This document shows positions 1,425 to 36,911 of a stretch of DNA of 39,786 bases, piece by piece. The DNA lies in the NCBI GenBank assembly GCA_035640005.1, contig DASQWY010000639.1, forward strand, positions 1-39,786, in the 5' to 3' direction. A program made the position numbers and the translations under genes. Each line of letters starts with the position of its first letter. Within the stretch, counting starts at the first letter, position 1. The DNA is from Actinomycetes bacterium (lineage in GTDB: Bacteria; Actinomycetota; CALGFH01). The notes under the pieces were generated by a model. It ran no database searches. It saw only the letters and a program-made list of their open reading frames with translations, and was not told where the DNA came from.

Positions 1425-2810
1425 TCAGCCGGCGTCGACGAACAGCGGCGTGAGCGACACCCGCAGCCGCACCCGGCCGTCGCGCACCTCGACCGGCTGC
1501 GCCTGGCCCAGCGCGTCGACGGCCGCCGCCCGCGCGGCCGGCCACGGCCAGTCCAAGCCCACCGGCGGCTCGTCCTCCCCGTCGAAGGGGTCGCGCCGCG
1601 CCCACACCACCAGCAGCGGCCCGCGCCCGCGGCGCCGCACCTCGAACAGGTACAGGTCCGGCCGCTCCGGCACCTCGACGCGGGCCACGCCCTCCACGCC
1701 GGCGAGCTGGCGGGCCAGCAGGGCGAACGCCTCGGCGGACGGGTGGCGGTGGGCCAGCTCGGCGCCCTCGTAGCCCAGCAGCGCCAGCTTGCCGAACAGC
1801 AGGTCCATCACTGACAGCGGGTTCTCGTAGCCGGGGATCTCCGGCGCGAGGTTCCAGCAGACCGTGCGGCGCACCCCGGCCGACAGCGCCAGCAGGTTGC
1901 GCATGACGAGCTCGCGGCGGTTGATCCGGTGCCGCTTGTCCTCCAGCTCGCTCGGGCAGCCGCGCATGAACATCTGCAGCTGCGGCGGCAGGCTGGCCAT
2001 GCGCTCGTACAGGCCGGCCATAGCAGCCTCGTCCGGCGCCGGTTGCATGGCCTGCTGCATCGCCGCGGTCGCCTCGGGGAACTGGTTCGGCCACGGGGCG
2101 TTGTATTCGCCGACCAGCAGCGGCTTCTCGTAGCCGAACGCGCGCATCATCGAACGGGCGGTGTCGATGTCGTCCAGGATCCGGTCGGCGGGCCCGTACA
2201 GGTGCAGGTCGAACACGTCAAATGCATCGCGGCCGTCGCGCAGCAGCAGGTGGAAAAACTGCCGCTCCGGGCTGTCGGGCGCGCTCGCCGGCAGCGCGTA
2301 CGGCGCGCCGCCGAGCACCACCGCCGCGGCCGGGTCGGCTTCCCTGACCGCCCGGTGCATCACCCGCAGCTGGGCGAGGTACTCCTGCGCGCTGCCCGCC
2401 CAGGTCAGCCCGACGTTGCAGGGCTCGTTGTCGCACTGCCACCAGCGCACCCGCCCGCCGCAGTGGCGCACCAGGCGGTGCACGAACCGGTGGTAGGCGT
2501 CCAGGTCCCTGGCCGGCGAGGGCGGTAGGAAGTCGGTCGGCTGCCGGGTCGCCCAGCGCGAGCTGGAGCAGACCGTGACCCAGACCTCCTCGGAGCCGTC
2601 GAGCTGGTCCAGGAACGCGTCGACGACCTCGAAGGTGTAGCGGCCGGGCTCGGGTTCGACCTGCGACCAGTAGACGTAGACCCGCACCAGGGTCGCGCCC
2701 AGCTCCCGGAGCTGCGGCACGAACGTGTCGGGCTTGCCGAACAGCCCGTAGCTGATGCCGCGGACGATCCCCAGCCGGATACCCTCAGGAACCATGTCAC
2801 CCGTTGCCAT
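1425..2810 (-). CDS. Glycoside hydrolase, clan GH-A TIM-barrel type (GH5/GH39/GH42-like; exact family not assignable by eye)
   Basis: 461-aa ORF with high GC3. GGGGAGG (rc of 2816-2822) lies 5 nt upstream of ATG 2810. WQCDNEPC (NEP acid/base) and LLVGEYN (nucleophile Glu) motifs fit clan GH-A. No signal peptide. Confidence 0.65.
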
Positions 2811-14824: not shown

Positions 14825-15772
14825 CTAGGGGGTCGGCGGGGGAGCGAGGGCGTCGAGGATGGCCTCCTTGGCGCCGCGCACCGAGTCGGCGTAGTGGATC
14901 GACGCCGGGTCGATGGTGCCGTCGGCGTACTCGCCCCTGGCGGCCAGCCGGTACACCTCGTCCATCTTGTCGCGGACCCCCTGCACGGAGGTCTGGTAGT
15001 GGACGCTCGCCCTGTCCACCGTGCCGTTCTCGTACTCGCCGCGGGCGAGCAGCCGGTAGATCGGCTCGACGACCTTGTTGCTGATGTCGTTCAGCAGGGC
15101 GTCCTTGTCGGCCTGGGGCCACTCACGGTAGGGCACGTCGGCCTCCTTCTCCTCTCCTTGGAACAGCTTGGCGAACGCGGCGTCGGTCATGCGGTTGTGG
15201 TCGCAGGTGCCGATCCCGGCGACCCGGGCGGCGTCGGTGTGCTGCCAGCAGTGCGGCGGGTCCGGCCAGCCGCGCGGGCGGCCGTAGCGGGTGGTGTAGG
15301 GGTGGGCGTCGTACTCGGCCCACCAGCCGAGGCAGCCGCCGGGGATGCGCCCGGGGTCGCCGAGGGTGTGGATGACGAAGTACGGGAACGAGTAGAACAG
15401 CCCTGCGCCCCCCAGGGCGGCCCGCACCCGCCGGCACCAGGCGTCCGCCCAGGCGAGGATGTGGCTGCCGCTGGTGCCGTCGGTGACCTCCACGTCCAGC
15501 GCCCAGGCGCAGCCCCGCCGCCAGCCGGCGCGCCGCACCACCCCGACGAAGTGGTCGGCCTGCGCGGTCGAGGAGCCGCCCGGGTAGCCGAAGTGGTAGG
15601 CCACCCGCGGCAGCCCGGCGCCCGCCGCGGCGCGCCAGCGGCCGGTGAACACGGGATCGGTGAACGTGCGGCCCTCGGTCGCCTTGAGCGCGATGAAGTC
15701 CTCGCCCGCGGCCATGTAGGTGGCGACGTGGAAGCTCGCCTGGTAGTGCGAGATGTCCGCGCCGGTTTTCAT
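14825..15772 (-). CDS. GH25 muramidase (lysozyme) with a C-terminal tandem-repeat domain; no signal peptide
   Basis: ATG 15772 (MKTGADISHYQ) is preceded by GGAGAG; the track start at 15856 adds 28 acidic residues with no SD. GH25 signatures are DISHYQ, FIALKATEG, AYHFGY and ALDVE. Confidence 0.85.
   Translation of the reverse strand: MKTGADISHYQASFHVATYMAAGEDFIALKATEGRTFTDPVFTGRWRAAAGAGLPRVAYHFGYPGGSSTAQADHFVGVVRRAGWRRGCAWALDVEVTDGTSGSHILAWADAWCRRVRAALGGAGLFYSFPYFVIHTLGDPGRIPGGCLGWWAEYDAHPYTTRYGRPRGWPDPPHCWQHTDAARVAGIGTCDHNRMTDAAFAKLFQGEEKEADVPYREWPQADKDALLNDISNKVVEPIYRLLARGEYENGTVDRASVHYQTSVQGVRDKMDEVYRLAARGEYADGTIDPASIHYADSVRGAKEAILDALAPPPTP
14855..15067 (-). repeat. Two tandem ~36-aa coding repeats in the GH25 C-terminus
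   Basis: R1 is EPIYRLLARGEYENGTVDRASVHYQTSVQGVRDKMD (14960-15067). R2 is EVYRLAARGEYADGTIDPASIHYADSVRGAKEAIL (14855-14959). More than half the positions are identical (YRL.ARGEY..GT.D.AS.HY..SV.G). Confidence 0.8.
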
Positions 15773-15920
15773 GGGAAGCTCTCCACCTGGCCCACCCTCC
15801 GAACCGTCGGTCGGCATGTCGCCCCAAACGGAATCATCGTCGAGGGACCGTTTCAAACCGGCGCACGCGGTACATGAGGGACGCCAGGACCGTCCCCGCT
15901 CCCCCGCAAGGAGGTTGATC

Positions 15921-16397
15921 GTGTCGGACAGCCCCGTGGCCAGCCTCTACGACTGGCTGATGTTCCTGCACATCCTCGCCGCGATGGTCTGGGTCGGCGG
16001 GCTGGTCGCGCTGGCCGTGTTCGGCAGGTACGTGCTCCGCGGCGGCCAGCACGAGGCGGTCGCGCGCTTCATCGGCAGCCTTCGCGTGCTCGGGCCGATC
16101 ATGCTGGCGCCGGCCGCCGTGCTGGTGCTGGTGTTCGGGATCTGGATGGTCCTCGACGAGCCGGCCTGGTCGTTCGAGCAGGCCTGGGTGTGGCTGGCGC
16201 TGCTGCTGGTGGTGGTGGCCGTGCTGGTCGGCGCGGTGTTCCTGAGCCGGGTGGCGCTGGCCGCCGAACGGGCGGTCGCGGCCGGCGACCACGACGGCGC
16301 CGCCCGCCAGCTGGCGCGCTGGACCTGGGGCATCTGGCTGATCCTGCTGCTGCTGGTGGTCGCCACCTGGGACATGGTGTTCAAGCCTGGCGCCTAG
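15921..16397 (+). CDS. DUF2269 family membrane protein
   Basis: GTG 15921 has AAGGAGG (15908-15914) 6 nt upstream. 158 aa with four TM helices. The LHILAAMVWVGG block is typical of the family. Confidence 0.65.
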   Translation: MSDSPVASLYDWLMFLHILAAMVWVGGLVALAVFGRYVLRGGQHEAVARFIGSLRVLGPIMLAPAAVLVLVFGIWMVLDEPAWSFEQAWVWLALLLVVVAVLVGAVFLSRVALAAERAVAAGDHDGAARQLARWTWGIWLILLLLVVATWDMVFKPGA

Positions 16398-17670
16398 AGC
16401 GACCCGCCGGCACGCGCACCCGCAGGGCGCCCGGCAGGCAGCGGAAGCGCAGCGGCGCGTCGAAGACCAGCGCCTCGCCGTCGACGCCCGCCGGCACCGG
16501 GCCGCCGGAGCGCACCTCGAACGCCGGCGCCTCCCACTGCAGCCAGCCCCGCGACGGGTCGGGCCGCCCCGCCCACCACGCCTCCGCGAAGCGGGCGAAC
16601 TCCTCGCCCTCCCCGGCCCTGGCCGCCACGATTCCCAGCATGCCGCCGTCCAGCCTGCTCCGCGCCCCGAAGCGGCGGTCGGCGGTGAGGCCGTAGCGGC
16701 CATTGGAGACCAGCACCAGCTGGAAGCTCGCGTGCTCCTGCCCGTCGGGCCCGGTGAACCGCAGGTCGAACGGCTGCGCCTGCGGCCCGAACGCGGTGGG
16801 CAGGACCCTCCAGGCGGTCTCGGCCTTGCGCTCGCGGTAGCCCTCGGTGCCGACCAGCCTGGCGTAGAGGCCGAGCGACACGTTGTTCACGAACAGGCGG
16901 TCGGCCACCATGCCGACGTCGACCAGCCGCTCCTCGGCGGCGCCGAACGCCTCCAGGGCCGCGACCGCGTCGTCCGGGTCGAGGCCCAGGTCGCGGGCGA
17001 AGTGGTTGCGGGTGCCCACCGGCACGCAGGCGAACGCCAGGCCCCGCTCCATGGCCACCTGGGCGACCAGCGCCTGCGAGCCGTCGCCGCCGGCCATGCC
17101 GAGCACGTCGGCCCCCTGGTCGGCCTCCCGCTGGGCGAGCTGCCGCAGGTCGTCGCCGGGGCCGAGGACCACCAGCTTGATCCCCCGCCGCCGTGCCTGC
17201 TCGGCCAGGTCGACCCGGGTGGCCTTGCCCCCGCCGGACCTGGGGTTGGCGAACAGCACCGCCCTGCTCGCCGCGGCGACCGGGGTGCCCTGGATGTGCA
17301 GCAGCGGCGGGCGCCGCCCGGCGGCCCGCAGGGCCTCGCCCGCGCCCCGGCCGGCGCCGACCAGCAGGGCCGCCACCAGCACGAACGCCACCGGCTGCCC
17401 GGCCAGCAGCAGCACCGAGCAGCACGCCACCGCGACCACCGCGGCGGCCAGGCGGACCGGTCCCGCGCCCCAGACCGCCACCGTCGCCGCCGGGACGGCG
17501 AGCAGCAGGGCGAGCAGGCCGGGGACCAGCAGCAGGGGGTGCCGGAACAGCGCCACCAGGATCGCGACGATCGCCACCAGCAGGGCCAGCACCGCCACCG
17601 CCACGCCCGGCACCGCTGGCCGCAGCGTGGTCCAGAGCTCGCGGACGCGCGCTTCCGGGACCGGCGCCAT
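16381..17670 (-). CDS. Diacylglycerol/lipid kinase family protein (DAGK catalytic domain) with an N-terminal ~4-TM region
   Basis: The catalytic-domain pattern is VLFANPRSGGGK...VLGMAGGDGSQALVAQVA...ACVPVGTRNHFARDLG. ATG 17670 is chosen over TTG 17706; neither has a clear SD. Confidence 0.8.
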   Translation of the reverse strand: MAPVPEARVRELWTTLRPAVPGVAVAVLALLVAIVAILVALFRHPLLLVPGLLALLLAVPAATVAVWGAGPVRLAAAVVAVACCSVLLLAGQPVAFVLVAALLVGAGRGAGEALRAAGRRPPLLHIQGTPVAAASRAVLFANPRSGGGKATRVDLAEQARRRGIKLVVLGPGDDLRQLAQREADQGADVLGMAGGDGSQALVAQVAMERGLAFACVPVGTRNHFARDLGLDPDDAVAALEAFGAAEERLVDVGMVADRLFVNNVSLGLYARLVGTEGYRERKAETAWRVLPTAFGPQAQPFDLRFTGPDGQEHASFQLVLVSNGRYGLTADRRFGARSRLDGGMLGIVAARAGEGEEFARFAEAWWAGRPDPSRGWLQWEAPAFEVRSGGPVPAGVDGEALVFDAPLRFRCLPGALRVRVPAGRSRRQA

Positions 17671-17722
17671 CGCCGAATGGTCGCAGAGGCCCGCCGGCGG
17701 CGGCAACGTGCTCAGGCGAACC

Positions 17723-18256
17723 TCAGGCGAACGGCAGGAACTGGTGGCTGGGCCGGTTGGTCACCTCGGCGGGGATGACCTGGCTGGCGAGCTCGCCGGT
17801 GGCCAGCTGGACCAGGAAGCCGGTCACCGGCAGGTGGTGGTCCTCCTGCATGGTGGTGCGCGACTCCAGCAGGGTCACCCACCAGGCGTCCGGGTCGCCC
17901 TCGGTGACCCAGAACAGCTCGTCGCCGTTGTCGGTGCGCCCCAGCGGCAGCACCCCGCCGGGCTCGGGGAACGGCGGCAGCGGCAGCCGCCGCGGGAACC
18001 TGGCCCTGGTCTGGGCGTAGGCCTCCAGCACCCGGTCCTTCTCGAACAGCAGGTTGCCGTCCTGCCCGGCGGCGAACGGGTTGAACAGGTACAGGAACTC
18101 GTCGACCTGCCCCGAGCCGTACAGCTCGGTGAAGGCCTTGAAGTCCCCGGGCAGCCCGGTGCCGAGCCGCGCCTCGATGCCCGCCCAGCCGTCGGGCCGG
18201 CCCGGCTCCACCGGGTCGACGGGGGGTGGCAGCAGCAGGCGGAGTCGTTCCAGCAT
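17723..18256 (-). CDS. SMI1/KNR4 (SUKH-1) family protein, immunity-type
   Basis: 177 aa with AGGAGG upstream of ATG 18256. The pattern W.GIEARLGTGLPGDFKAFTELYGSG...PLGRTDNGDELFW is typical of SMI1/KNR4. No signal peptide or TM. Confidence 0.8.
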   Translation of the reverse strand: MLERLRLLLPPPVDPVEPGRPDGWAGIEARLGTGLPGDFKAFTELYGSGQVDEFLYLFNPFAAGQDGNLLFEKDRVLEAYAQTRARFPRRLPLPPFPEPGGVLPLGRTDNGDELFWVTEGDPDAWWVTLLESRTTMQEDHHLPVTGFLVQLATGELASQVIPAEVTNRPSHQFLPFA

Positions 18257-18274
18257 GCGGCCTCCTGGTGGCGG

Positions 18275-18949
18275 CTACGGGGCGGCCGCCGGGGCGACGG
18301 CCTGCTTCACGGCGGCCTGCGGGGTGTTGGCGATGGTGACGTCCAGGTGGAAGCCGTGGTTGCCGATGGCGGTGATGCGGACGGCGCTGGGCGGGCCGCG
18401 GGAGCCGCGGCTGGGGTACAGCGGCCGCACGCTGTAGCGGATCGTCTCGCCGGCCTGGACCGCCTCGGCCACGGCGGTCTCGTAGTCGCGCATCACCGGC
18501 GTGTTCGCCCGCGACTGGTACAGGGCGACCAGGTTGGCCGCCACCTCCCCGGAGCCGCCGAGCTGGCGGCCGAACAGGTGGCCGCGGGCGCGGTTGCGGG
18601 CCGGCAGCTGGTCCCAGCCGGGCGGGTGGACGTCCGGGTCGGCCGCCGAGCCGAGCTGGTGGCGGCCGGCGGCGGCGACCATCGCCGGGGTGATGGTGGC
18701 GCGGATGCCGCTGCGCTGCCCGGTGCCCGGGTCGACGTGGCCGTAGTCGACGTTGCCGCCGAGCCGGTCGATCGCCTTGGTGTTGTCGGCCTGGCCGCCG
18801 CCCGAGGAGGGCGGCCGGGTCGGCCCGGTCGGCGCGGGCAGCACCCCGCGCTGGATCAGCAGGTAGCCGACCACGGCCACCACGACGGTGACCAGCAGGT
18901 AGCCGAACGAGCTGGTCCGGCGGCGGGACCTGCGGCGACGGCGCGGCAC
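18275..18949 (-). CDS. Membrane-anchored DNA/RNA non-specific endonuclease (Endonuclease_NS_2 / His-Me finger type)
   Basis: 224 aa. GTG start with GGAG 7 nt upstream. Arg-rich N-terminus (MPRRRRRSRRR), one TM (FGYLLVTVVVAVVGYLLI), then a Pro/Gly linker. The nuclease domain reads DPDVHPPGW...ARGHLFGRQLGGSGEVAANLVALYQSRANTPVMRDYETAVAEAVQAGETIRYSVRPLY. Confidence 0.75.
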   Translation of the reverse strand: MPRRRRRSRRRTSSFGYLLVTVVVAVVGYLLIQRGVLPAPTGPTRPPSSGGGQADNTKAIDRLGGNVDYGHVDPGTGQRSGIRATITPAMVAAAGRHQLGSAADPDVHPPGWDQLPARNRARGHLFGRQLGGSGEVAANLVALYQSRANTPVMRDYETAVAEAVQAGETIRYSVRPLYPSRGSRGPPSAVRITAIGNHGFHLDVTIANTPQAAVKQAVAPAAAP

Positions 18950-19018
18950 GCGCGGGCTCCGGATGGTCGGGACATGACGTGGACGTGCACGGGTGGACTA
19001 CCCGCCCGGGAAGGAAAG

Positions 19019-20062
19019 CTACCGTGCCCGCCGGTCGCTGTCGCTCGAGTCGCGGACCACCAGCTGCGGCTCGAACACCAGCTGGCGGTGGCCGTGCCTG
19101 GGCCCCTCGGCGGCCTCCTCGATGAGCAGCTCCGCGGCCGAGCGGCCGAGCTGGGCGCGGGGCTGGCGGACCGACGACAGCGGCACCGCCGCGGCGGCGG
19201 CGAAGTCGATGTCGTCGTAGCCGACGATCGCCAGGTCGCCGGGGACGTGCAGGCGCCGGCGGGTCATCTCCTGCAGCAGCCCGAGGGCGAGCAGGTCGTT
19301 GGCGCAGAAGGCGGCGGTCGGCCGCGCCCGCGCCGGCAGCTCGGCGATGCGCGCCCCCGCCGCCAGGCCTGACGAGAAGTTCAGCGCGGGCGTCTCCACC
19401 GTGGTCAGCGCCGAGGCCGGCAGGCCGGCCGCGGCCAGCGCGCGCCCCGCCCCCTCGTGGCGGTCGCGGACCTGCTTGATGCTGAACGGGCCGCCCACGA
19501 AGGCGATCCGCCGGTGGCCGTGCTCCACCAGGTGGCCGGCGGCCAGCTCGCCGCCGTAGACGTCGTCGACCGACACCGAGCAGTGGTTGCGGGTGGAGGC
19601 CCAGCGGTCCAGCAGCACCACCGGCGTGCCGCGCCGCTGCAGCTGCCGCAGCCGCTCGCTCACGCCCCGCACCGGGGTGATCAGGATGCCGTGGACCCGG
19701 TGCTCCTCGAGCAGGTCGAGGTAGCGGCGCTCGCGCTCGGCCTTCTCGTCGCTGTTGCAGAGGATCACCGCCAGCCCGGCCGCGGCGGCGGCGTCCTCGA
19801 CCCCGCGGGCGACGTCGGTGAAGAACGGGTTGGAGACGTCCAGCACCACCAGGCCGAGGGTGCGGCTGCGGCCGGCGCGCAGCTGGCGGGCGGACTCGTT
19901 GCGGACGAACCCGAGCGCGGCGATCGCCTGCTCCACGCGGGCGCGGGTGGCGGGGGCGACCAGCTGCGGCCGGTTGAGGACGTTGGACACCGTCCCGACC
20001 GACACGCCGGCCCTCGCCGCCACGTCGCGGATGCTCTTGGTGCCCTCCGGCGCCCTCACCAC
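19019..20062 (-). CDS. LacI family transcriptional regulator (probable rhamnose regulon repressor, RhaR-type)
   Basis: GTG 20062 (or 20059) is preceded by GAGGAAGGGGG; the track start at 20119 is less likely. The HTH is SIRDVAARAGVSVGTVSNVLNRP, followed by a periplasmic-binding-protein-like sugar domain. It is divergent from the rhamnose operon. Confidence 0.85.
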   Translation of the reverse strand: MVRAPEGTKSIRDVAARAGVSVGTVSNVLNRPQLVAPATRARVEQAIAALGFVRNESARQLRAGRSRTLGLVVLDVSNPFFTDVARGVEDAAAAAGLAVILCNSDEKAERERRYLDLLEEHRVHGILITPVRGVSERLRQLQRRGTPVVLLDRWASTRNHCSVSVDDVYGGELAAGHLVEHGHRRIAFVGGPFSIKQVRDRHEGAGRALAAAGLPASALTTVETPALNFSSGLAAGARIAELPARARPTAAFCANDLLALGLLQEMTRRRLHVPGDLAIVGYDDIDFAAAAAVPLSSVRQPRAQLGRSAAELLIEEAAEGPRHGHRQLVFEPQLVVRDSSDSDRRAR

Positions 20063-20125
20063 CGACCCCCTTCCTCGCTCTGCTGATCTTGAACCGTATC
20101 GAGCAGATGTGGGAGCCACCGCCCC

Positions 20126-20180: not shown

Positions 20181-20208
20181 GTATCGGGTGAAGCACGGGA
20201 GGCTCGCG

Positions 20209-21726
20209 GTGGCGCAGGCCGGCCCGCCGCTGCTGGCGCTGGAGCACGCCGCCAAGTCGTTCGGCTCGGTGCGGGCCCTGGAGGACGGCTCGGTCGAGCT
20301 GCGCGCGGGTGAGGCGCACGGCCTGGTCGGCGAGAACGGCGCCGGCAAGTCGACGCTGGTGAAGGTCCTCGCCGGGGTGTACGCGCCCGACGCCGGCCGG
20401 CTGCTGCTCGACGGGCGGGAGGTCCGCCTCGGCGGCCCGGCGGACGCGCGCGCCGCCGGCATCGCGGTGATCTACCAGGAGCCGACCCTGTTCCCCGACC
20501 TGTCGGTGGCGGAGAACATCTTCATGGGGCGCCAGCCGCTGGCGGCCGGCAGGCGCATCGACGGCCGCGAGCTGCGCCGCCGGGTCGAGGCGCTGATGGG
20601 GCGGCTCGGCGTCCCGCTGGACCCCTCCCGGCCCGCCCGCGGCCTGTCAATCGCCGACCAGCAGATCGTCGAGATCGCCAAGGCGCTGTCGTTCGAGGCG
20701 CGCGTGATCGTGATGGACGAGCCGACCGCGGCGCTGTCGGGCGCGGAGGTCGCGCGGCTGTTCGCGGTGGCGCGGGCGCTGCGCGCGCACGGCGCGGCGG
20801 TCCTGTTCATCTCCCACCGGCTCGACGAGGTCTTCGCCCTCTGCCAGCGGGTGACCGTGATGCGCGACGGCCGCCAGGTGTTCACCGGCCCGCTCGACGG
20901 GCTCACCAGGGACGACCTGGTGCGCCGGATGGTCGGCCGCGAGCTGGCGGCGATGTACCCCAAGCAGGCCGCCGGCCGCGGCGAGGTGGCGCTGTCGGTG
21001 CGCCGGCTCACCCGCGAGGGGGTGTTCGCCGACGTCAGCTTCGACGTGCGCCACGGCGAGATCGTGGGCCTGGCCGGCCTGGTCGGCGCCGGGCGCAGCG
21101 AGGTCGCCAGGGCCGTGTTCGGCATCGACCGGCGCGACGCGGGCGAGGTGATGGTGGAGGGCCGGCGGCTGCCCGCCGGGTCGCCGACGGCCGCGATGGC
21201 CGCCGGGGTCGGCTACGTCCCCGAGGACCGCCGCGAGCAGGGCCTGGTGATGGACCTGTCGATCGCCCGCAACGCCAGCCTGGCGTCGCTGGGGCGGCTG
21301 CGCCGCGGCCTGCTGATCCGCGCCGCCGACGAGCGCCGGCTCGCCGCCGACTGGGCCGCGCGGCTGCGGCTGCGCTACGCCCGCTTCAGCGACCCGGTCG
21401 CCGCCCTGTCCGGCGGCAACCAGCAGAAGGTGGTGCTCGCCAAGTGGCTGGCCCGCCACCCCAGCGTGCTGATCGTCGACGAGCCGACCCGCGGCATCGA
21501 CGTCGCCACCAAGGCCGAGGTCCACCGGCTGCTGTCCGACCTGGCCGGCGACGGCGTGGCGGTGCTGATGATCTCCTCGGAGCTGCCCGAGATCCTCGGC
21601 ATGGCCGACCGGGTGCTGGTGATGCACGAGGGCCGCCTCACCGCGGAGCTGTCGCGGGAGGAGGCCACCGAGGAGCGGGTCATGTTCGCCGCCACCGGCG
21701 ACGCGGCGACCGGGGCGCGCGGATGA
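20209..21726 (+). CDS. Sugar (rhamnose) ABC transporter ATP-binding protein, duplicated ABC domains (RbsA-like)
   Basis: GTG 20209 has GGGAGG (20197-20202) 6 nt upstream; the track start 20188 is the alternative. Walker [10 protein letters not shown] is present. Signature-containing blocks occur in both halves (LSGGNQQK). Confidence 0.85.
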
Positions 21727-22775
21727 GCGTCGGCGTGCGGCGCGCGGAGCAGGCCGCCGCCGAGGAGCGCTCCCGCCGCGCCGGGCGCCTGGTCGACGCC
21801 GCGCTGCGCCTGCGCGAGCTGGGCATCCTGCTGGTCCTCGCCCTGGTCGTGGCCGTGACCGCCGCCTACAACCCGCGCTTCCTCGACGCCCAGAGCATCC
21901 GCGACCTGCTGCTCAACGCCTCGATCGTGGCGCTGCTCACGGTCGGGCAGACGCTGGTGGTCATCACCCGCAACGTCGACCTGTCGGTCGGCTCGGTGCT
22001 GGGGCTGGCCGCGTTCATGACCGGCGACCTGCTGAGCGGCCGTCCCGGCCTGCCGGTGGCCGCGGCGCTGCTCGCCGGCGTGCTGCTCGGCGCGGTCTGC
22101 GGCGCCGCCAACGGCGCGGTGACCGCGGCGGCGCGCGTGCCGAGCCTGGTGGTCACCCTCGGCACCCTGTACGTGTTCCGCGGCGTCGACTACGCCTGGG
22201 CGGGCGGCCGCCAGATCAACGCCGCCAACCTGCCGGACAGCCTACTCAACCTCGGCAGCGGCCAGCTGCTCGGGGTCCCCTACCTGGCCGCCGTCACCGC
22301 CGTGCTGGTGGCAACCGCGGCGTTCTCGCTGCGCTCCTACCGGTCGGGCCGGGAGCTGTACGCGATCGGCTCCAACCCCGACGCGGCGCTGCTGGCCGGC
22401 ATCCCGGTCGGCCGGCGGGTGTTCGCCGCCTTCGTCGCCAGCGGCGCCGTCGCCGGGCTGGCCGGGGCGCTGTGGACGGCCCGCAACGGCACCGTCGACG
22501 CCACCGCCGGCACCGGCCTGGAGCTGCAGGTGATCTCCGCGGTGGTGGTCGGCGGCGTGGCCATCTTCGGCGGCAGCGGCTCGGTGGTCGGGGCGGCGCT
22601 GGGCGCGCTGCTGCTGTCCACCATCGGCAGCGCGCTGGTGGTGCTCAAGGTCCCCTCGTTCTGGCTGCAGGCGGTGGCCGGCGCGCTGCTGATCGGCGCC
22701 ATCGCCCTGGACCGTCTGGTGGGCCTGCGCATCGCCGCCGCGCTCAGGCAGAGGAGCGTGCGCCGTGGCGGCTGA
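21723..22775 (+). CDS. Sugar ABC transporter permease (RbsC-like), first of two
   Basis: ATG 21723 overlaps the upstream stop (ATGA). 350 aa with about 9-10 TM segments. [15 protein letters not shown] is typical of the family. Confidence 0.85.
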
Positions 22776-23778
22776 GGCCGGCCAGGGAGGCCGCGCCGGG
22801 CTGCGGCGCCTGCTGCGCTGGGACACCACCCTGGTGCTGCTGCTGGTGGTGGTGGCGGTCGCCGGCCAGCGCGCCTCCCCGGACTTCCTCACCGGCACCA
22901 ACCTGTTCTACCTCGGCCTCGACATCGGCGAGATCGCCCTGCTGGCGCTGCCGCTGACCCTGGTGATCGTCGCCGGCGAGATCGACCTGTCGGTCGCCTC
23001 GGTGCTGGGCCTGTCCAGCGCCCTGATCGGCTACCTGTGGGACGCGGGCTGGGCGCTGGAGACGATCTTCCCGGCGGTGGTGGTCGCCGGCGCGCTCGCC
23101 GGCGCGCTCAACGGCTTCCTGGTCACCCGGCTGGGCCTGCCATCGCTGGCGGTCACCATCGGCACGCTGGCGCTGTACCGCGGGCTGGCGTTCGTGGTCC
23201 TCGGCGACCGGGCGGTGGCCGACCTCCCGGCCATGTACACCAGGTACGGCACCACGCCGCTGCCCGGCACCCACGTCCCCTACCCGACCGCGCTGTTCGC
23301 CGTGCTGGCGGTGCTGTTCGCGGTGCTGCTGCACGCCACCCCGTTCGGCCGTTCGGTGTTCGCCATCGGCGCCAACCGGGAGGCCGCGTTCTTCTCCGGG
23401 ATTCGCGTCAAGCGCACCAAGCTCGTGCTGTTCGTGCTCAGCGGCGCGGTGGCCGGCCTGGCCGGGATCGTCTACACGCTGCGGTTCGCCAGCGCCCGCG
23501 CGGACAACGGCACCGGCCTGGAGCTGGCGGTGGTCGCCGCGGTGCTGCTCGGCGGGGTGTCGATCTTCGGCGGCAGGGGCACCCTCGGCGGCGTCGTCGC
23601 CGCGGTCTTCCTGCTCGGCGGCGTCCGCAACGCGCTGATCCTCAACGACGTCTCCAACGACACCCTGAACGTGGTGACCGGGCTGCTGCTGATCGGCAGC
23701 GTGGTCGCGCCCAGCGCCGTCAGGGCGCTCGCGCGGGCGCGCCCGCGCCGCGCCGCCGCGCCCACCTCGGTTCCCTGA
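22765..23778 (+). CDS. Sugar ABC transporter permease (RbsC-like), second of two
   Basis: 337 aa. The GTG start overlaps the upstream gene by 11 nt. The LVIVAGEIDLSVAS block is present. Confidence 0.85.
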   Translation: MAAEAGQGGRAGLRRLLRWDTTLVLLLVVVAVAGQRASPDFLTGTNLFYLGLDIGEIALLALPLTLVIVAGEIDLSVASVLGLSSALIGYLWDAGWALETIFPAVVVAGALAGALNGFLVTRLGLPSLAVTIGTLALYRGLAFVVLGDRAVADLPAMYTRYGTTPLPGTHVPYPTALFAVLAVLFAVLLHATPFGRSVFAIGANREAAFFSGIRVKRTKLVLFVLSGAVAGLAGIVYTLRFASARADNGTGLELAVVAAVLLGGVSIFGGRGTLGGVVAAVFLLGGVRNALILNDVSNDTLNVVTGLLLIGSVVAPSAVRALARARPRRAAAPTSVP

Positions 23779-23832
23779 CCCTCTGTCCGGTCGCGCCGCG
23801 CCGCGCGGCGCCGAGAGAAAGGACATCGCACC

Positions 23833-24921
23833 ATGCACCGAGCAGCTCTGCCGAGGCGCCCCCGCTGGGTGGGGCTCCTCGCCCTGGCCGCGGCCTGCGC
23901 GGTCGTGCTGGCGGCCTGCGGCGGGACGACCAAGAACAGCTCCTCCGGCGCGGCCGCCACCACCGCCGCCGGCGGCCAGGCCAACCCCAACGCCCCGCTC
24001 AAGCAGGGCCTCAAGATCGCCTTCCTGCCCAAGCAGGTGAACAACCCCTACTTCACCGTCTCCGACAATGGCGGCAAGAAGGCGATCGGCGAGTTCAGCG
24101 GCCAGTACAAGGAGGTCGGCCCCTCCGAGGCCACCGCCTCCTCGCAGGTCTCCTACATCAACACCCTCGCGCAGCAGCGTCAGGACGCGATCGTGGTGTC
24201 CGCCAACGACGCCAACGCCATCGCGCCGGCGCTCAAGGCGGCCAAGGCGCAGGGTGTCAAGGTGGTGACCTACGACTCCGACGCCGCGCCGGACGCGCGC
24301 ACGGTGTTCGTCAACCAGGCCACCTCCGAGGACGTCGGCCGCAGCGAGGTCCAGGTGCTCGGCAAGCAGCTCAACTACAGCGGCGACATCGCCATCCTGT
24401 CGGCGACGGCGAACGCCACCAACCAGAACACCTGGATCCGGTTCATGAAGAACGAGCTGGCCAAACCGCAGTACAAGAACATGAAGCTGGTCAAGGTCGC
24501 CTACGGTAACGACGACGACCAGACCTCGTTCCAGCAGACGCAGGGGCTGCTGCAGGCCTACCCGAACCTGAAGGGGATCATCTCGCCGACCACGGTCGGG
24601 ATCGCCGCCGCCGCCCGCTACCTCAGCAAGTCGTCCTACAAGGGGAAGGTCGCGCTGACCGGCCTGGGCACGCCCAACCAGATGCGCAAGTTCGTCAAGG
24701 ACGGCACCGTGCAGTCGTTCGAGCTGTGGGATCCCGCCAAGCTCGGCTACCTGGCCGCGTACGCGGCGGCGGCGCTGTGCTCCGGTCAGATCACCGGCAA
24801 GCAGGGCGAGACCTTCAAGGCCGGCGAGCTCGGCACCAAGAAGATCGGAGCGAACGGGGAGGTCCTGCTGGGCCCGCCGCAGGTGTTCGACAAGTCCAAC
24901 ATCGACCAGTTCAACTTCTGA
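23833..24921 (+). CDS. rhaS: Rhamnose ABC transporter substrate-binding lipoprotein
   Basis: 362 aa. Lipobox LAACGG follows the signal peptide. KIAFLPKQVNNPYF and the periplasmic-binding fold fit a sugar-binding protein. Its position is immediately upstream of rhaM-rhaI. Confidence 0.8.
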   Translation: MHRAALPRRPRWVGLLALAAACAVVLAACGGTTKNSSSGAAATTAAGGQANPNAPLKQGLKIAFLPKQVNNPYFTVSDNGGKKAIGEFSGQYKEVGPSEATASSQVSYINTLAQQRQDAIVVSANDANAIAPALKAAKAQGVKVVTYDSDAAPDARTVFVNQATSEDVGRSEVQVLGKQLNYSGDIAILSATANATNQNTWIRFMKNELAKPQYKNMKLVKVAYGNDDDQTSFQQTQGLLQAYPNLKGIISPTTVGIAAAARYLSKSSYKGKVALTGLGTPNQMRKFVKDGTVQSFELWDPAKLGYLAAYAAAALCSGQITGKQGETFKAGELGTKKIGANGEVLLGPPQVFDKSNIDQFNF

Positions 24922-24923
24922 GC

Positions 24924-25247
24924 ATGACGCAACGCGTGTGCTTCCTGCTGCAGGTCCGCCCGGACCGGGTCGCCGAGTACCGCGAGCGGCACCGCGCGGT
25001 GTGGCCGGAGATGCGGGAGGCGCTCCGGGCGGCCGGCTGGCGCAACTACTCGCTGTTCCTGCGCGAGGACGGGCTGCTGGTCGGCTACCTCGAGTGCGAG
25101 GACTTCGCCGCGGCCCGCGCGGCGATGGAGGCCACGGCGGTGAACGGGCGCTGGCAGGCGGAGATGCAGGAGCTGTTCACTGAGCTGGCCGGCCAGCGCC
25201 CGGACGAGCGCATGCGGCCGCTGGAGGAGGTCTTCCACCTGCCATGA
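24924..25247 (+). CDS. rhaM: L-rhamnose mutarotase
   Basis: 107 aa: MTQRVCFLLQVRPDRVAEYRERHRAVWPEMREALRAAGWRNYSLFLREDGLLVGYLE. Confidence 0.85.
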   Translation: MTQRVCFLLQVRPDRVAEYRERHRAVWPEMREALRAAGWRNYSLFLREDGLLVGYLECEDFAAARAAMEATAVNGRWQAEMQELFTELAGQRPDERMRPLEEVFHLP

Positions 25248-26413
25248 GCACCGACCGTTCCACCGTCAAGGCCGCCCTCGGGCAGCAGCGCATCGAGCTG
25301 CCATCGTGGGCGTTCGGCAACACCGGCACGCGCTTCAAGGTGTTCGCCCAGCCGGGCGTGCCGCGCAACGCCTACGAAAAGGTCGACGACGCCGCCCAGG
25401 TCCACGCGGTCACTGGGGTGGCGCCCAGCGTGGCGCTGCACATCCCCTGGGACCGGGTCGACGACTACGGCCACCTGGCCAAGCACGCCGCCGACCGGGG
25501 GGTGCGGCTGGGCACCATCAACGCCAACGTCTTCCAGGACGACGACTACAAGCTCGGCAGCGTCTGCCACCCGGACCCGCGGGTGCGCCGCAAGGCGCTG
25601 GACCACCTGCTGGCGTGCGTGGAGGTGATGGACGCCGCCGGCTCGCGGGACCTGAAGCTGTGGTTCGCCGACGGCACCAACTACCCCGGGCAGGACTCGA
25701 TCCGGGCGCGGCAGGAGCGGCTGGCCGAGGTGCTGACCGAGGTGTACGAGCGGCTCGGGTCACAGCAGCGGCTGCTGCTGGAGTACAAGCTGTTCGAGCC
25801 GGCCTTCTACCACACCGACGTGCCCGACTGGGGCACCGCGCTGGTCCACTGCCTGGCGCTGGGGGAGCGCGCCCTGGTGGTGGTCGACACCGGCCACCAC
25901 GCGCCGGGCACCAACATCGAGATGATCGTGGCGCTGCTGCTGCGGGCCGGCAGGCTCGGCGGCTTCGACTTCAACTCCCGCTTCTACGCCGACGACGACC
26001 TGATGGTCGGCGCCGCCGACCCGTTCCAGCTGTTCCGGATCATGCACGAGGTGGTGGCCGGCGGCGGCTACGCCCCCGAGGCGGGGATCGCCTTCATGCT
26101 CGACCAGTGCCACAACATCGAGCCGAAGGTCCCCGGCCAGATCCGCTCGGTGATGAACGCCCAGGAGGCGACGGCCAAGGCGCTGCTGGTCGACGCCGGC
26201 GCCCTGCGGGCGGCGCAGCAGGCCGGCGACGTGCTTGGCGCCAACGCGGTGCTGATGGACGCCTACGACACCGACGTGCGCCCGCTGCTGGCCGAGCTGC
26301 GCGCCGACATGGGCCTGGACCCCGACCCGCTGGGTGCCTACGCCCGCTCCGGCCACGCAGAGCGGATCGTGGCCGAGCGGGTCGGCGGCACCCAGGCCGG
26401 CTGGGGAGCCTGA
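25244..26413 (+). CDS. rhaI: L-rhamnose isomerase (xylose-isomerase-like TIM-barrel, Pseudomonas stutzeri/actinobacterial type)
   Basis: 389 aa. ATGA overlap with rhaM. The N-terminal region reads IELPSWAFGNTGTRFKVF...HIPWD. Confidence 0.85.
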   Translation: MSTDRSTVKAALGQQRIELPSWAFGNTGTRFKVFAQPGVPRNAYEKVDDAAQVHAVTGVAPSVALHIPWDRVDDYGHLAKHAADRGVRLGTINANVFQDDDYKLGSVCHPDPRVRRKALDHLLACVEVMDAAGSRDLKLWFADGTNYPGQDSIRARQERLAEVLTEVYERLGSQQRLLLEYKLFEPAFYHTDVPDWGTALVHCLALGERALVVVDTGHHAPGTNIEMIVALLLRAGRLGGFDFNSRFYADDDLMVGAADPFQLFRIMHEVVAGGGYAPEAGIAFMLDQCHNIEPKVPGQIRSVMNAQEATAKALLVDAGALRAAQQAGDVLGANAVLMDAYDTDVRPLLAELRADMGLDPDPLGAYARSGHAERIVAERVGGTQAGWGA

Positions 26414-26419
26414 CCGCCG

Positions 26420-28456
26420 ATGACCGCGCCGCACGTGCGGGCGCTGCTGGACCGGTCCCACCGGCTCGGCGCCGACCCGCGCAACACCAACTGGGCCGGC
26501 GGCAACGCCTCCTGCAAGGGGCGCGCCGACGACCCGGTCACCGGCGGGCCGGTGGAGCTGCTGTGGGTCAAGGGCTCCGGCGGGGACCTCGGCACCCTCA
26601 CCGAGGCCGGGCTGGCGGTGCTGCGGCTGGACCGGCTGCGCGCCCTGGCCGGCGTCTACCCCGGGGTCGAGCGGGAGGACGAGATGCAGGCGGCGTTCGA
26701 CTTCTGCCTGCACGGCAAGGGCGGCGCGGCCCCCTCGATCGACACCGCCATGCACGGCCTGGTGGAGGCGCCGCACGTCGACCACCTGCACCCCGACGCC
26801 GCCATCGCGCTGGCGACCGCGGCCGACGGGGAGGCGCTGACCAAGCAGTGCTTCGGCGACCGGGTCGCCTGGGTGCCGTGGCGGCGGCCCGGCTTCCAGC
26901 TCGGCCTGGACGTCGCCGCCATCCAGCGGGCCGACCCCAGGGCGGTCGGGGTGGTGCTGGGCGGCCACGGGATCACCGCCTGGGGCGCCACCTCCGGGGA
27001 GTGCGAGGCCCGCTCGCTGGAGATCATCCGCGGCGCCGAGCGGTTCATCCTGCAGCGCGGCCGGCCCGAGCCGTTCGGGCCGGTGCTGGACGGCTACCAG
27101 CCCCTGCCGGAGGGCGAGCGGCACGCCCGCGCCGCTGCCCTGTTCCCGCTGCTGCGCGGCCTGTGCTCGACCGACCGCCGTCAGGTCGGCCACTACACCG
27201 ACGCGGGCGTGGTGCTCGACTTCCTCGCCAGGGAGAAGCACCAGGCCCTGGCCGCGCTCGGCAGCTCCTGCCCCGACCACTTCCTGCGCACCAAGGTGCG
27301 CCCGCTGGTGCTGGACCTGCCCCCGGCCGCGCCGCCGGAGCGGGTCGCCGCGCGTCTGCGCGAGCTGCACGCCGCCTACCGGGAGGACTACCAGGCCTAC
27401 TACCGGCGGCACGCGCAGCCCGGGTCGCCGCCGCTGCGCGGCGCCGACCCGGCGATCGTGCTGGTGCCCGGGGTGGGGATGTTCTCCTTCGGCGCGGACA
27501 AGCAGACCGCCAGGGTCGCCGGGGAGTTCTTCGTCAACGCCGTCAACGCCATGCGCGGCGCCGAGGCGCTGTCGAGCTACGCCCCCATCCCCGAAGCCGA
27601 GAAGTTCCGCATCGAGTACTGGGAGCTGGAAGAGGCCAAGCTGCGGCGCCGGCCCGCGCCCAGGCCGCTGGCGACCCGGGTCGCCCTGGTGACCGGTGCC
27701 GGCTCCGGCATCGGCAAGGCGGTCGCCGAGCGGCTGGCCGCCGAGGGCGCCTGCGTGGCAGTCGCCGACCTGGACGCCGACGCGGCGGCCGCGACCGCCG
27801 GCGGGCTGGGCGGCGCCGACGTGGCCATGGCGGCCAAGGTCGACGTCGCCGACGAGCGGCAGGTCGCCGCCGCGGTCCGCGCGACCGTGCTGGCCTTCGG
27901 CGGGGTCGACCTGGTGGTGAACAACGCCGGCCTGTCGATCTCCAAGCCGCTGCTGGACACCACCCTCCACGACTGGGACCTGCAGCACGAGGTGATGGCC
28001 AAGGGCTCGTTCCTGGTCTCCCGGGAGGCGGTCCGGGTGATGCTCGACCAGGGCCTCGGCGGCGACCTGGTCTACGTGGTCAGCAAGAACGCGGTGGTGG
28101 CGGGGCCGAGCAACCTCGCCTACGGGGCGGCAAAGGCCGACCAGGCCCACCAGGTGCGGCTGCTGGCGGCCGAGCTCGGCGAGCACGGCATCCGCGTCAA
28201 CGGCGTCAACCCCGACGCGGTGGTGCGCGGCTCGGGGATCTTCGCCAAGGGCTGGGGCGCGCAGCGGGCGGCCGTCCACGGCGTGCCAGAGGAGCGGCTC
28301 GGCGAGTTCTACGCGCAGCGCACCCTGCTCAAGCGCGAGGTGCTGCCCGCCCACGTGGCCGCCGCGGTGTTCGCCCTGGTGGGCGGGGACCTGTCGCTCA
28401 CCACCGGCCTGCACGTGCCGGTGGACGCCGGCGTCGCCGCCGCCTTCCCGCGATGA
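26420..28456 (+). CDS. Bifunctional rhamnulose-1-phosphate aldolase / short-chain dehydrogenase (RhaEW-type fusion)
   Basis: 678 aa. The N-terminal class II aldolase/adducin-like half reads GGNASCKG...HGLVEAPHVDHLHPDA. The C-terminal SDR half has VTGAGSGIGKA, NNAG and YGAAK. Confidence 0.85.
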   Translation: MTAPHVRALLDRSHRLGADPRNTNWAGGNASCKGRADDPVTGGPVELLWVKGSGGDLGTLTEAGLAVLRLDRLRALAGVYPGVEREDEMQAAFDFCLHGKGGAAPSIDTAMHGLVEAPHVDHLHPDAAIALATAADGEALTKQCFGDRVAWVPWRRPGFQLGLDVAAIQRADPRAVGVVLGGHGITAWGATSGECEARSLEIIRGAERFILQRGRPEPFGPVLDGYQPLPEGERHARAAALFPLLRGLCSTDRRQVGHYTDAGVVLDFLAREKHQALAALGSSCPDHFLRTKVRPLVLDLPPAAPPERVAARLRELHAAYREDYQAYYRRHAQPGSPPLRGADPAIVLVPGVGMFSFGADKQTARVAGEFFVNAVNAMRGAEALSSYAPIPEAEKFRIEYWELEEAKLRRRPAPRPLATRVALVTGAGSGIGKAVAERLAAEGACVAVADLDADAAAATAGGLGGADVAMAAKVDVADERQVAAAVRATVLAFGGVDLVVNNAGLSISKPLLDTTLHDWDLQHEVMAKGSFLVSREAVRVMLDQGLGGDLVYVVSKNAVVAGPSNLAYGAAKADQAHQVRLLAAELGEHGIRVNGVNPDAVVRGSGIFAKGWGAQRAAVHGVPEERLGEFYAQRTLLKREVLPAHVAAAVFALVGGDLSLTTGLHVPVDAGVAAAFPR

Positions 28457-29886
28457 GCGGGCCGGGGGCCTACGCCGCCGTCGACCTCGGCGCCTCCAGC
28501 GGGCGGGTGATGGTCGCCCGGGTCGGCCGGTCGCGGCTGGAGCTCGAGGAGGTACACCGCTTCGGCAACCAGCCGGTGCGGCTGCCGGACGGGCTGCACT
28601 GGGACGTGCTGCGGCTGTACCGGGAGGTCCTCCACGGCCTGCGGGCGGCGGCCGGCCGCGCCGAGGGGATCAGCAGCGTCGGCGTGGACGGCTGGGGCGT
28701 CGACTACGGGCTGCTGGACGCCTCCGGCGCGCTGCTCGGCAACCCCTACCACTACCGCGACGCCCGCACCGACGGGGTCGCCGGCAAGGTCCACGCGGCC
28801 ATCCCGTTCGAGAAGCTGTACGAGCTCACCGGCCTGCAGTTCCTGCCGTTCAACACCGTCTACCAGCTGGCCGCCGCCGCCGGCACGCCGCAGCTGGAGG
28901 CGGCGCGGACGCTGCTGCTGCTGCCCGACCTGTTCGGCTACTGGCTGAGCGGCCAGCTCGGCGCGGAGCGGACCAACGCCTCCACCACCGGGCTGCTGGA
29001 CGTCCGCGCCGGCGCCTGGTCGCCGCGGGTGCTGCGCGCGGCCGGGATCCGGGAGGGGCTGCTGCCGCCGCTGCGCCCGCCGGGCGAGGTGGTCGGCCCG
29101 CTCCGCGCCGAGGTCGCCGCCGAGACCGGCCTGCCGCCGTCGGTGGTGCTCACCGCGGTCGGCACCCACGACACCGCCTCGGCGGTGGTGGGCGTCCCCG
29201 CCGACGGCGACCGCTTCGCCTACGTCAGCTGCGGCACCTGGTCGCTGGTCGGGGTGGAGCTGGACCGCCCGGTGCTGACCGCCGCCAGCCGGGAGGCGAA
29301 CTTCACCAACGAGGGCGGCGTCGACGGCCGCGTCCGCTACCTGCGCAACGTCGGCGGCCTGTGGCTGCTGCAGGAGTCGCTGCGGGTCTGGGAGCGGGCA
29401 GGGCTGCCGTCGGACCTGCCGGCGCTGCTGGGCGCCGCCGGCGAGCAGCCGGCCGGCGGGCCGCTGGTCGACCCCGACGACGAGGCGTTCCTGCGGCCGG
29501 CCGACATGCCCGCGGCGATCCGGGAGGCCTGCCGGCGGGGCGGCCAGCCGCAGCCGGCCGGCCAGGCCGGGCTGGTGCGCTGCGTCCTCGACAGCCTCGC
29601 CGCCGCCTACGCGCGGGCGGTCGGCGACGCGGTGCGCCTGTCGGGCCGGCCGGTCGAGGTCGTGCACCTGGTCGGCGGCGGCGCCCGCAACGGGCTGCTG
29701 TGCCAGCTCACCGCGGACGCCTGCGGGCTGCCGGTGCTGGCCGGGCCGGTGGAGTCGACCGCGCTCGGCAACGTGCTGGTGCAGGCGCGCGCCCACGGCT
29801 CCATCGGCGGCGACCTGCAGGCGCTGCGGGCGCTGCTGCGGGCCACCCAGCAGATCCGCCGCTTCGAGCCCGCCGCCGCGGCCTGA
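28453..29886 (+). CDS. rhaB: Rhamnulokinase (FGGY family)
   Basis: This is the last 477 codons of track ORF 25306..29886. ATG 28453 overlaps the upstream stop (ATGA). Family blocks are AAVDLGASSGRV, GVDGWGVDYGLLD and HLVGGGARN. Confidence 0.85.
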   Translation: MSGPGAYAAVDLGASSGRVMVARVGRSRLELEEVHRFGNQPVRLPDGLHWDVLRLYREVLHGLRAAAGRAEGISSVGVDGWGVDYGLLDASGALLGNPYHYRDARTDGVAGKVHAAIPFEKLYELTGLQFLPFNTVYQLAAAAGTPQLEAARTLLLLPDLFGYWLSGQLGAERTNASTTGLLDVRAGAWSPRVLRAAGIREGLLPPLRPPGEVVGPLRAEVAAETGLPPSVVLTAVGTHDTASAVVGVPADGDRFAYVSCGTWSLVGVELDRPVLTAASREANFTNEGGVDGRVRYLRNVGGLWLLQESLRVWERAGLPSDLPALLGAAGEQPAGGPLVDPDDEAFLRPADMPAAIREACRRGGQPQPAGQAGLVRCVLDSLAAAYARAVGDAVRLSGRPVEVVHLVGGGARNGLLCQLTADACGLPVLAGPVESTALGNVLVQARAHGSIGGDLQALRALLRATQQIRRFEPAAAA

Positions 29887-35295: not shown

Positions 35296-35309
35296 ACCCC
35301 GAGTGGGGT
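35296..35309. terminator. Short hairpin ACCCC-GAGT-GGGGT at the convergent junction
   Basis: It sits in the only clearly AT-richer stretch (35225-35295) between the TetR stop and the hydrolase stop. The stem is only 5 bp, so support is weak. Confidence 0.25.
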
Positions 35310-36748: not shown

Positions 36749-36911
36749 GGCTGCACCACCCACCCTCCCGCGGGGCGCCGAACCGCTCGCCGCCCGATGC
36801 GCCGGTTTTTATCACTCCGGCCCATGGCGGCGAAACCGGGCGGCCGCCTGTCGGCGTCCTGGCCTATCGTTCGCTTGGACGGCGGACGCGGCGGAAGGAG
36901 AGGAGACCGCG

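Follow-up and report, generated by a model that had tools for sequence, protein, structure and literature searches.

The stretch of DNA analysed here, 39,786 nt of contig DASQWY010000639.1 from an uncultured actinomycete lineage (hereafter the window), carries on its minus strand two adjacent genes, encoding a 224-amino-acid (aa) nuclease (18275-18949) and a 177-aa protein of the SUKH/SMI1-KNR4 type (17723-18256), which very probably constitute a cognate pair of exported nuclease and inhibitor. Judged from its sequence, the locus is a cassette of toxin tip and immunity gene whose export device would be a plain signal anchor of the Sec type, and its most fitting classification is that of a fixed Tox-NucA/Imm-SUKH toxin-immunity pair, predicted to be of the Sec-exported class. 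The finding is real, its interpretation is correct in outline and the system is ordinary in kind. Its interest lies in that a polymorphic-toxin tip and its immunity gene are found here at the bare minimum, namely a signal anchor, a tip and a SUKH protein, in a pair that is strictly conserved and abundant in soil metagenomes.

Conservation and sequence features of the gene pair

A set of 87 related loci was assembled from genomes of representative species, from metagenome contigs and by look-ups of the exact proteins. In 82 of them, which are all of the informative ones, the SUKH gene immediately follows the nuclease gene, the remaining five contigs stopping within 115 nt of the nuclease match. 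The pair is consequently contiguous in 82/82 loci, and its conservation in related genomes, on which the reading in the initial annotation of this DNA was made to depend, was borne out. Each of these loci holds one nuclease and one SUKH gene, separated by a short spacing like that of the window, and no other gene family is common to more than 9 of 88 neighbourhoods. The pairing is kept at 65% nuclease identity (relative P0241) and still at 34% identity, in a signal-peptide-bearing relative of alignment A3; the partner in that relative shares 41% identity with the SUKH protein of the window. Moreover, the nonsynonymous divergence (dN) of one gene correlates with that of the other over 1770 locus pairs (r=0.92). 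The named relatives are all metagenome-assembled genomes of uncultured Actinomycetes or Actinomycetota bacteria and the remainder are metagenome contigs. In the window itself, each of the two genes is present once and orphan immunity genes are lacking.

Both open reading frames (ORFs) have hundreds of close homologues and are therefore real genes rather than chance ORFs. From the ORF list and its translation, the nuclease gene starts with GTG and stops with TAG (18275-18277), and the 18-nt spacer that follows (18257-18274) carries AGGAGG at 18261-18266, 4 nt ahead of the ATG of the second gene (18254-18256). The GC content at third codon positions (GC3) is 1.00 in the nuclease ORF and 0.98 in the SUKH ORF, equal to that of the surrounding genes in a window of 74.3% GC, and the codon usage of both is host-like. 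The second gene had been described beforehand as lying 18 nt downstream behind its own AGGAGG and encoding 177 aa with a W..IE pattern; the sequence confirms this description, the pattern being contained in WAGIEARLGTGLPGDFKAFTELYG.

The nuclease matched the Pfam family Endonuclea_NS_2 (PF13930) at residues 104-182 with 53.9 bits against a cut-off of 27, so that the family proposed in the initial annotation passed the Pfam check. A total of 447 homologues were retrieved at E<=1e-3 and PF13930 is present in all 120 of those listed. The motifs ARGHLFGRQLGGSG, NLVALYQSRANTPVMRDYE and GETIRYSVRPLY were all found. No variation at H124, N139, N149 or E157 occurs in alignments A1 and A3, which span 34-92% identity overall (34-79% in A3), and these residues match the GH, N, N, E signature given for Tox-NucA in Table 2 of Zhang et al. 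2012; G123 is invariant in A3 and is replaced by Ala in some A1 orthologues. H124 also corresponds, in the alignment, to the catalytic His which is mutated (H160A) in EndA crystal structure 3OWV, and the only solved structures matched, whether by sequence profile or by Foldseek, are those of group B Streptococcus (GBS) NucA, EndA, Sda1 and Spd1. The nuclease is a member of the PF13930 His-Me-finger family, with a fold that is supported rather than demonstrated.

As a separate observation, RAH replaces RGH in orthologues P0005, P0013, P0030, P0092, P0102 and P0109 of alignment A1; within this clade, therefore, the GH signature does not strictly need its Gly.

Ahead of the domain, the protein begins with MPRRRRRSRRRTSS, in which eight Arg fall within residues 3-11, and continues with the hydrophobic stretch FGYLLVTVVVAVVGYLLI, whose best 19-residue Kyte-Doolittle mean is 2.35, and with the linker PAPTGPTRPPSSGGG. 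These features of the 18275-18949(-) ORF had been described before, together with the motifs given above, and all are present in the sequence. Of 83 orthologues, 80 keep the anchor layout, and the residues before the helix, by the median nine Arg/Lys and no Asp/Glu, give it a strong positive-inside bias; the linker has the highest dN of the protein (0.30 vs 0.145 for the domain). Inspection by eye of the anchor segment showed no lipobox Cys and no convincing AxA site. Export by Tat, considered because of the Arg run, was rejected by eye, as the residues after RR (T-S-S; S-G-S in orthologues) are off the consensus S/T-R-R-x-F-L-K and the h-region is strongly hydrophobic. The Pfam scan and hydropathy analysis found nothing before the nuclease domain other than this signal-anchor-like N-terminus, in agreement with the earlier remark that no delivery module is present.

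As judged from its relatives, the second protein belongs to the SUKH/SMI1-KNR4 superfamily, an assignment that is secure at that level. SMI1_KNR4 was matched by 20 of 20 orthologues at E<=0.01 (best 1.6e-6), and the partner of P0241 scored 31.3 bits, above the cut-off of this model. Two annotated Streptomyces SMI1/KNR4 proteins, to which the window protein is 30% identical over its full length (~170 aa, E 1e-17), scored 37.5 and 30.1 bits on SUKH_6, above the Pfam threshold. The family profile matched B. subtilis YobK (2PRV) with E 0.007, and weak matches to Lin2918 and FBXO3 were obtained as well. No NCBIfam match was found for the protein and the Pfam scan gave no family beyond the SUKH models. 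With 25 Asp/Glu against 14 Lys/Arg, the protein is acidic and has no strongly hydrophobic segment, and therefore fits a cytoplasmic nuclease inhibitor. The predicted order of its elements, helices and then four strands, is compatible with the SUKH fold without being evidence for it.

Kinship with polymorphic toxins and comparison with known systems

An exhaustive search of 1.84 billion cluster representatives returned 687 relatives of the nuclease. In the 138 representatives with most of the domain aligned, the domain lies at the extreme C-terminus in 134, and more than 150 aa precede it in 70. The regions upstream of the domain in relatives include PT-HINT, eCIS_core, DUF4781, FN3 arrays and an RHS core tail, and toxins of the RHS, PT-HINT, extracellular contractile injection system (eCIS) and type VII secretion system (T7SS) kinds share 38-50% identity, in their C-terminal tips, with the window nuclease domain. 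RHS-repeat proteins encoded on linear plasmids of Streptomyces, with annotated lengths of ~1,560-1,630 aa, end in the same domain (38-42% identical); one of these proteins is annotated 'putative T7SS-secreted protein', and two Streptomyces RHS toxins are each followed by an SMI1/KNR4 gene homologous to the window SUKH gene. Both partners being homologous to those of true toxin/immunity pairs, they are therefore taken to descend from a polymorphic-toxin tip-plus-immunity cassette. A hydrophobic N-terminus was found in 7 of 68 short representatives, so that the compact form with an export signal only is a minority, concentrated in the clade of the query.

The locus accordingly shares one hallmark of polymorphic toxin systems, a C-terminal domain held in common with multidomain secreted toxins (134/138), and lacks that of polymorphism, since the 120 listed full-length homologues share PF13930 and neither orphans nor arrays were found. 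The signal-anchor-like segment, as the only trafficking determinant, would place it in the class 'T2SS/Sec-dependent, signal peptide', T2SS standing for type II secretion system. Such a combination was catalogued previously. In Zhang, Iyer and Aravind (2011), a linkage of SUKH genes to genes for NucA-family nucleases was described, a Streptomyces case among them, as were some actinobacterial nuclease toxins with conventional signal peptides only, and the catalogue of Zhang et al. 2012 contains Tox-NucA with Imm-SUKH in actinobacteria with T2SS/Sec export, Imm36 (DUF600), not SUKH, being given there as the primary immunity family of Tox-NucA. The locus is therefore not a new kind of system, and the novelty of architecture implied by the initial annotation has to be lowered.

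The pairs of the S. virginiae plasmid NZ_CP108335 (WP_331730121/WP_331730119) and of S. aurantiacus NZ_CP114282 (WP_269246398/WP_269246397) are Tox-NucA plus Imm-SUKH toxin/immunity pairs which share with the window pair the PF13930 domain, a homologous immunity protein, the toxin-then-immunity gene order and a short gap. On the other hand, these Streptomyces RHS toxins have DUF6531, RHS repeats and an RHS core before the tip, whereas the window nuclease has only a signal anchor and linker of ~55 aa, and the window cassette is a non-polymorphic one, present once on the chromosome. Its Pfam nuclease family and its toxin/immunity logic are shared by the characterised DNase toxin systems EsaD-EsaG (S. 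aureus T7SS), YeeF-YezG (B. subtilis LXG) and RhsA (Dickeya dadantii), but EsaD, YeeF and RhsA are delivered by the T7SS or by type VI secretion (T6SS) via LXG or Rhs regions. EsaG and YezG are DUF600 proteins and so belong to an immunity family other than SUKH. In the PDB searches, neither EsaD nor YeeF was detectably matched by sequence to any solved chain of theirs.

Export of a single nuclease domain behind a signal is also the layout of EndA (S. pneumoniae), NucA (S. agalactiae) and Sda1/Spd1 (S. pyogenes), EndA consisting of a signal anchor and a PF13930 domain. These enzymes share PF13930 with the window nuclease and act on extracellular DNA, but their sequence similarity to it is marginal (E 0.004-0.5) and, unlike it, they are host-associated virulence or competence factors of Firmicutes. 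In Anabaena NucA-NuiA and in barnase-barstar, an exported non-specific nuclease is neutralised in the cytoplasm of the producer by a small acidic inhibitor. The window pair resembles them in principle; the inhibitors are not homologous, that of the window being a SUKH protein, and Anabaena NucA belongs to PF01223, not PF13930.

As a side observation, a compact 209-aa Endonuclea_NS_2 protein is encoded on Streptomyces sp. NBC_00826 plasmid NZ_CP108874 (648516-649822; locus L089:2818-4124). Its gene overlaps by 4 nt the next one, which encodes a 226-aa fusion of an SMI1_KNR4 domain and an Lsr2 DNA-binding domain, and IS6 and ISAzo13 transposase genes lie just upstream of the two. By its domain content, this partner is apparently an immunity domain tethered to a nucleoid-binding module.

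Proposed role and competing explanations

Concerning the topology, catalytic activity, physical inhibition and ecological role of the pair, we infer a two-gene operon that would yield an exported nuclease and a cytoplasmic inhibitor. The product of the first gene would be a type-II (N-in, C-out) membrane protein, inserted via Sec/signal recognition particle (SRP) by means of its Arg-rich tail and single helix, and a metal-dependent, sugar-non-specific His-Me-finger nuclease would be displayed on the outer face of the membrane at the end of a ~30-residue linker. The second gene, with its own strong ribosome-binding site and presumably on the same transcript, would provide an acidic cytoplasmic SUKH protein which may bind and block any nuclease that becomes folded in the cytoplasm, stays behind there or comes back in from sibling cells. 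With respect to evolution, an RHS/T7SS/eCIS toxin tip and its immunity cassette may have had the large delivery region swapped for a plain signal anchor. Taken as a whole, that is, a two-gene operon, an anchored nuclease with its inhibitor and a surface role, this explanation stands about an even chance of being right. For the role alone, the odds come close to even that the pair serves mainly to attack extracellular DNA/RNA with a nuclease on the cell surface or released from it, the producer being protected, so as to scavenge nutrients or turn over matrix, and not mainly as a cell-penetrating weapon; the nuclease could then be a domesticated toxin acting in the manner of NucA-NuiA or barnase-barstar.

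The strongest competitor, a somewhat unlikely one in our estimation, is a Sec-exported antibacterial toxin, a minimal bacteriocin-like or contact weapon, that would leave the producer surface or be displayed on it, enter related actinomycetes by a route not recognised here and degrade their nucleic acids while the SUKH protein shields kin. The identity of the domain to RHS, PT-HINT, eCIS-core and 'T7SS-secreted' toxin tips, its C-terminal position in the relatives, the homology of the SUKH partner to the immunity genes of those toxins and the retention of the immunity gene in every informative locus all agree with it, as does a variable genomic context of the sort known for accessory conflict genes; the general secretory pathway is, furthermore, the most prevalent export route of polymorphic toxins (Zhang et al. 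2012). A surface role is nevertheless favoured because the tether is short and no receptor-binding, translocation or processing (HINT, protease) domain is present: the hydrophobic segment is long (~18-19 residues) with no clear cleavage site, and the linker adds only ~30 residues. It is favoured too because polymorphism is lacking, no alternating tips being found on the same N-terminus among the 120 listed homologues, because the window has no orphan cassettes or immunity arrays, and because both partners are stably conserved, staying ~70-78% identical across hundreds of relatives with a dN/dS below 1 (0.37-0.54, where dS is the synonymous divergence). This ratio says little, since a GC3 of ~98% compresses dS and therefore inflates it, and it is not readable as relaxed selection; from the dN/dS analysis only the co-divergence correlation was used.

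Several further observations weigh, like the inflated dN/dS, against the explanation preferred here. The strictly retained immunity gene, the toxin-tip ancestry and the ever-changing genomic context fit a conflict system at least as well, and we know of no dedicated immunity gene for EndA-type surface nucleases, NucA or Sda1/Spd1. The domain may be cleaved and released; relative P0243 (56-58% identical) has a classical cleavable signal peptide. The SUKH/SMI1-KNR4 identity put forward in the initial annotation is sustained by the orthologues and Streptomyces homologues but not by the score of the window protein itself, which alone falls below the Pfam cut-offs (in brackets) with 21.0 (25.4) for SMI1_KNR4, 16.8 (27) for SUKH_6 and 14.7 (27) for SUKH_5. 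The AF2 model of this protein (pLDDT 48.0) was too poor for a fold search, and that of the nuclease (pLDDT 58.6) is of low confidence over the catalytic region; Foldseek with the latter returned NucA, EndA, Sda1 or Spd1 as all of its top 12 matches, at TM scores of only 0.24-0.37. Both models are poor because the alignments, made of sequences ~70-78% identical, are shallow.

Other explanations depart further from a surface nuclease with its inhibitor. That the pair is a selfish addiction-type cassette, with a labile inhibitor and a stable nuclease moving between sites as a unit, is highly improbable: the strict two-gene unit does occur in unrelated neighbourhoods, most relatives bring their own conserved promoter-like upstream element and one Streptomyces plasmid copy is flanked by insertion sequence (IS) elements, but an exported, membrane-anchored toxin is ill-placed to kill a cell that lost the cassette, the window locus has no integrase, transposase or flanking repeats, and no close copy was found on any plasmid, where all matches were below 60% identity and were toxin tips, or on phage and viral contigs, which gave one weak Enterococcus phage match and zero, respectively. 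Still slimmer are the chances of a competence-type DNA-entry nuclease that, like EndA, would process incoming DNA for uptake; although EndA has the same Pfam family and a membrane-anchored layout, the similarity to it is marginal (E 0.04-0.5) and that to toxin tips is strong, EndA is not known to us to have an immunity partner, and no ComEA/ComEC-like genes are among the conserved neighbours. Anti-phage defence was rejected as well, the PADLOC defence models giving no match for the nuclease, the SUKH protein or the neighbouring kinase.

This kinase, a multi-transmembrane DAGK_cat (diacylglycerol kinase) lipid kinase encoded downstream at 16381-17706(-), had been regarded in the initial annotation as possibly co-transcribed with the pair. 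A three-gene unit linked to membrane lipid metabolism would suit the common strand, the gap of 16 nt (to a TTG) or 52 nt (to an ATG), the lack of a recognisable terminator and the recurrence of the junction in a 98%-identical contig. That contig is, however, the only place where the kinase gene recurs: a DAGK homologue is missing from 87/87 related loci and from a 79-80% identical relative, and the kinase is therefore not part of the module. Promoter and terminator scans of the window, which found zero in the real sequence and in shuffles alike, are uninformative at 74% GC. Functional coupling was thus not borne out, and such a unit is almost certainly not what the locus represents.

A further idea, improbable though of some consequence, is that the tethered nuclease is a true interbacterial weapon without any dedicated delivery region, the SUKH protein possibly doubling as a Sec-targeting or holding chaperone. 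Killing could then depend on contact between touching hyphae or cells, or the nuclease could be released and imported into Gram-positive targets by an unrecognised route. If this held, a minimal 150-residue tip would suffice for entry, which bears on how T7SS/RHS tips cross the target membrane. The Sec-linked chaperone idea recalls Syd, which is a SUKH protein (Zhang et al.). The pair would offer a compact experimental system for asking whether a toxin tip can turn, by domestication, into an ordinary surface nuclease. It would equally be one for studying the inhibition of PF13930 nucleases by SUKH proteins, since no complex of the two was returned when the PDB was searched with either protein or its profile.

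Upstream element, feature coordinates and neighbouring genes

A conserved upstream element of ~85 nt travels with the cassette in ~38 distinct relatives despite differing upstream genes. It consists of TTGCAT, 18 nt, GAACGT and a ~55-nt leader ending CTGGAGCCGATG; in the aligned copies, an invariant TTGC(A/T) -35-like box is followed by the 18-nt spacer, a near-invariant GCGGCGAACGT and a leader ending ACCGGACCAnCTGGAGCCGATG. By these features, the element looks like a cassette-borne promoter with its 5' untranslated region. No known RNA family was found by Rfam in four related loci, and by eye there was no convincing match to an SOS (Cheo/LexA) box or a PHO box in the upstream element of relatives. 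The element was searched for in the window, including 18950-19018, and was not found. The window cassette, which begins 69 nt behind the stop codon of the LacI-family gene upstream, lacks the conserved element, and its expression may rely on another promoter or on read-through. The features of the pair are collected in Table 1.

Table 1. Positions of the features of the nuclease-SUKH locus in the window (minus strand) and of upstream elements in related loci.
Feature	Position	Strand	Basis
Nuclease gene	18275..18949	-	ORF, translation, Pfam, 447 homologues at E<=1e-3
Predicted export/anchor segment: Arg-rich n-region (residues 1-13) and hydrophobic helix (~14-32)	18854..18949	-	Sequence, Kyte-Doolittle
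Pro/Gly/Ser-rich linker, residues ~33-62	18764..18853	-	Variable length, indel-rich in alignments A1 and A3
Tox-NucA / Endonuclea_NS_2 domain, residues ~63-210	18320..18763	-	Aligns to C-terminal tips of long toxins
R122-G123-H124 codons (CGC GGC CAC), with predicted catalytic His of the His-Me finger	18578..18586	-	Alignments A1 and A3, 3OWV
Intergenic spacer with Shine-Dalgarno AGGAGG	18257..18274	-	Sequence; similarly short spacing in related loci
Putative acidic cytoplasmic SUKH/SMI1-KNR4-type immunity (inhibitor) gene	17723..18256	-	Homology of relatives
Upstream intergenic region, 69 nt, with GGAG (18957-18960) 7 nt before GTG	18950..19018	-	Sequence
Upstream element, examples in relatives	L014:2790-2887, L001:5906-6003, L060:2853-2950		Alignment A4

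The upstream neighbour of the cassette is a LacI-family regulator gene (19019-20119(-)), and the initial annotation had placed the pair between a sugar regulator and a lipid kinase, with no mobile-element hallmarks. The LacI and DAGK_cat genes were both found and the mobile-element scans were empty. A mobile-element origin at the window locus was thus rejected, the window having no tRNA and no composition shift, the window genes scanned no integrase or transposase domain, and the locus no flanking repeats other than a local 11-nt tandem duplication. This duplication spans the SUKH stop codon at the lipid-kinase junction (17713-17738; minus strand ...GTTCGCCTGAG GTTCGCCTGAG...) and could be a slippage product or a junction scar; no repeat matching it was found at the opposite end of the cassette.

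Divergent from the LacI-family gene, window positions 20188-29886(+) hold a likely rhamnose-utilisation cluster, with a sugar ABC transporter (ATPase, two permeases and binding protein), a xylose-isomerase-like TIM-barrel protein, an aldolase-SDR fusion and an FGGY-type kinase. The regulator adjoins this cluster and therefore probably governs it rather than the nuclease. Elsewhere in the window, two large ORFs with host-like codon usage, 1425-2810(-) (461 aa) and 35309-36763(-) (484 aa), gave no Pfam match at E<=1e-4. Finally, the product of the gene at 14825-15856(-) contains a muramidase domain of the GH25 type (PF01183, 94 bits), shows no obvious signal peptide and is endolysin-like, with no phage genes nearby, and its C-terminal region carries two copies of a ~35-residue ARGEYxxGTxDxASxHY motif.

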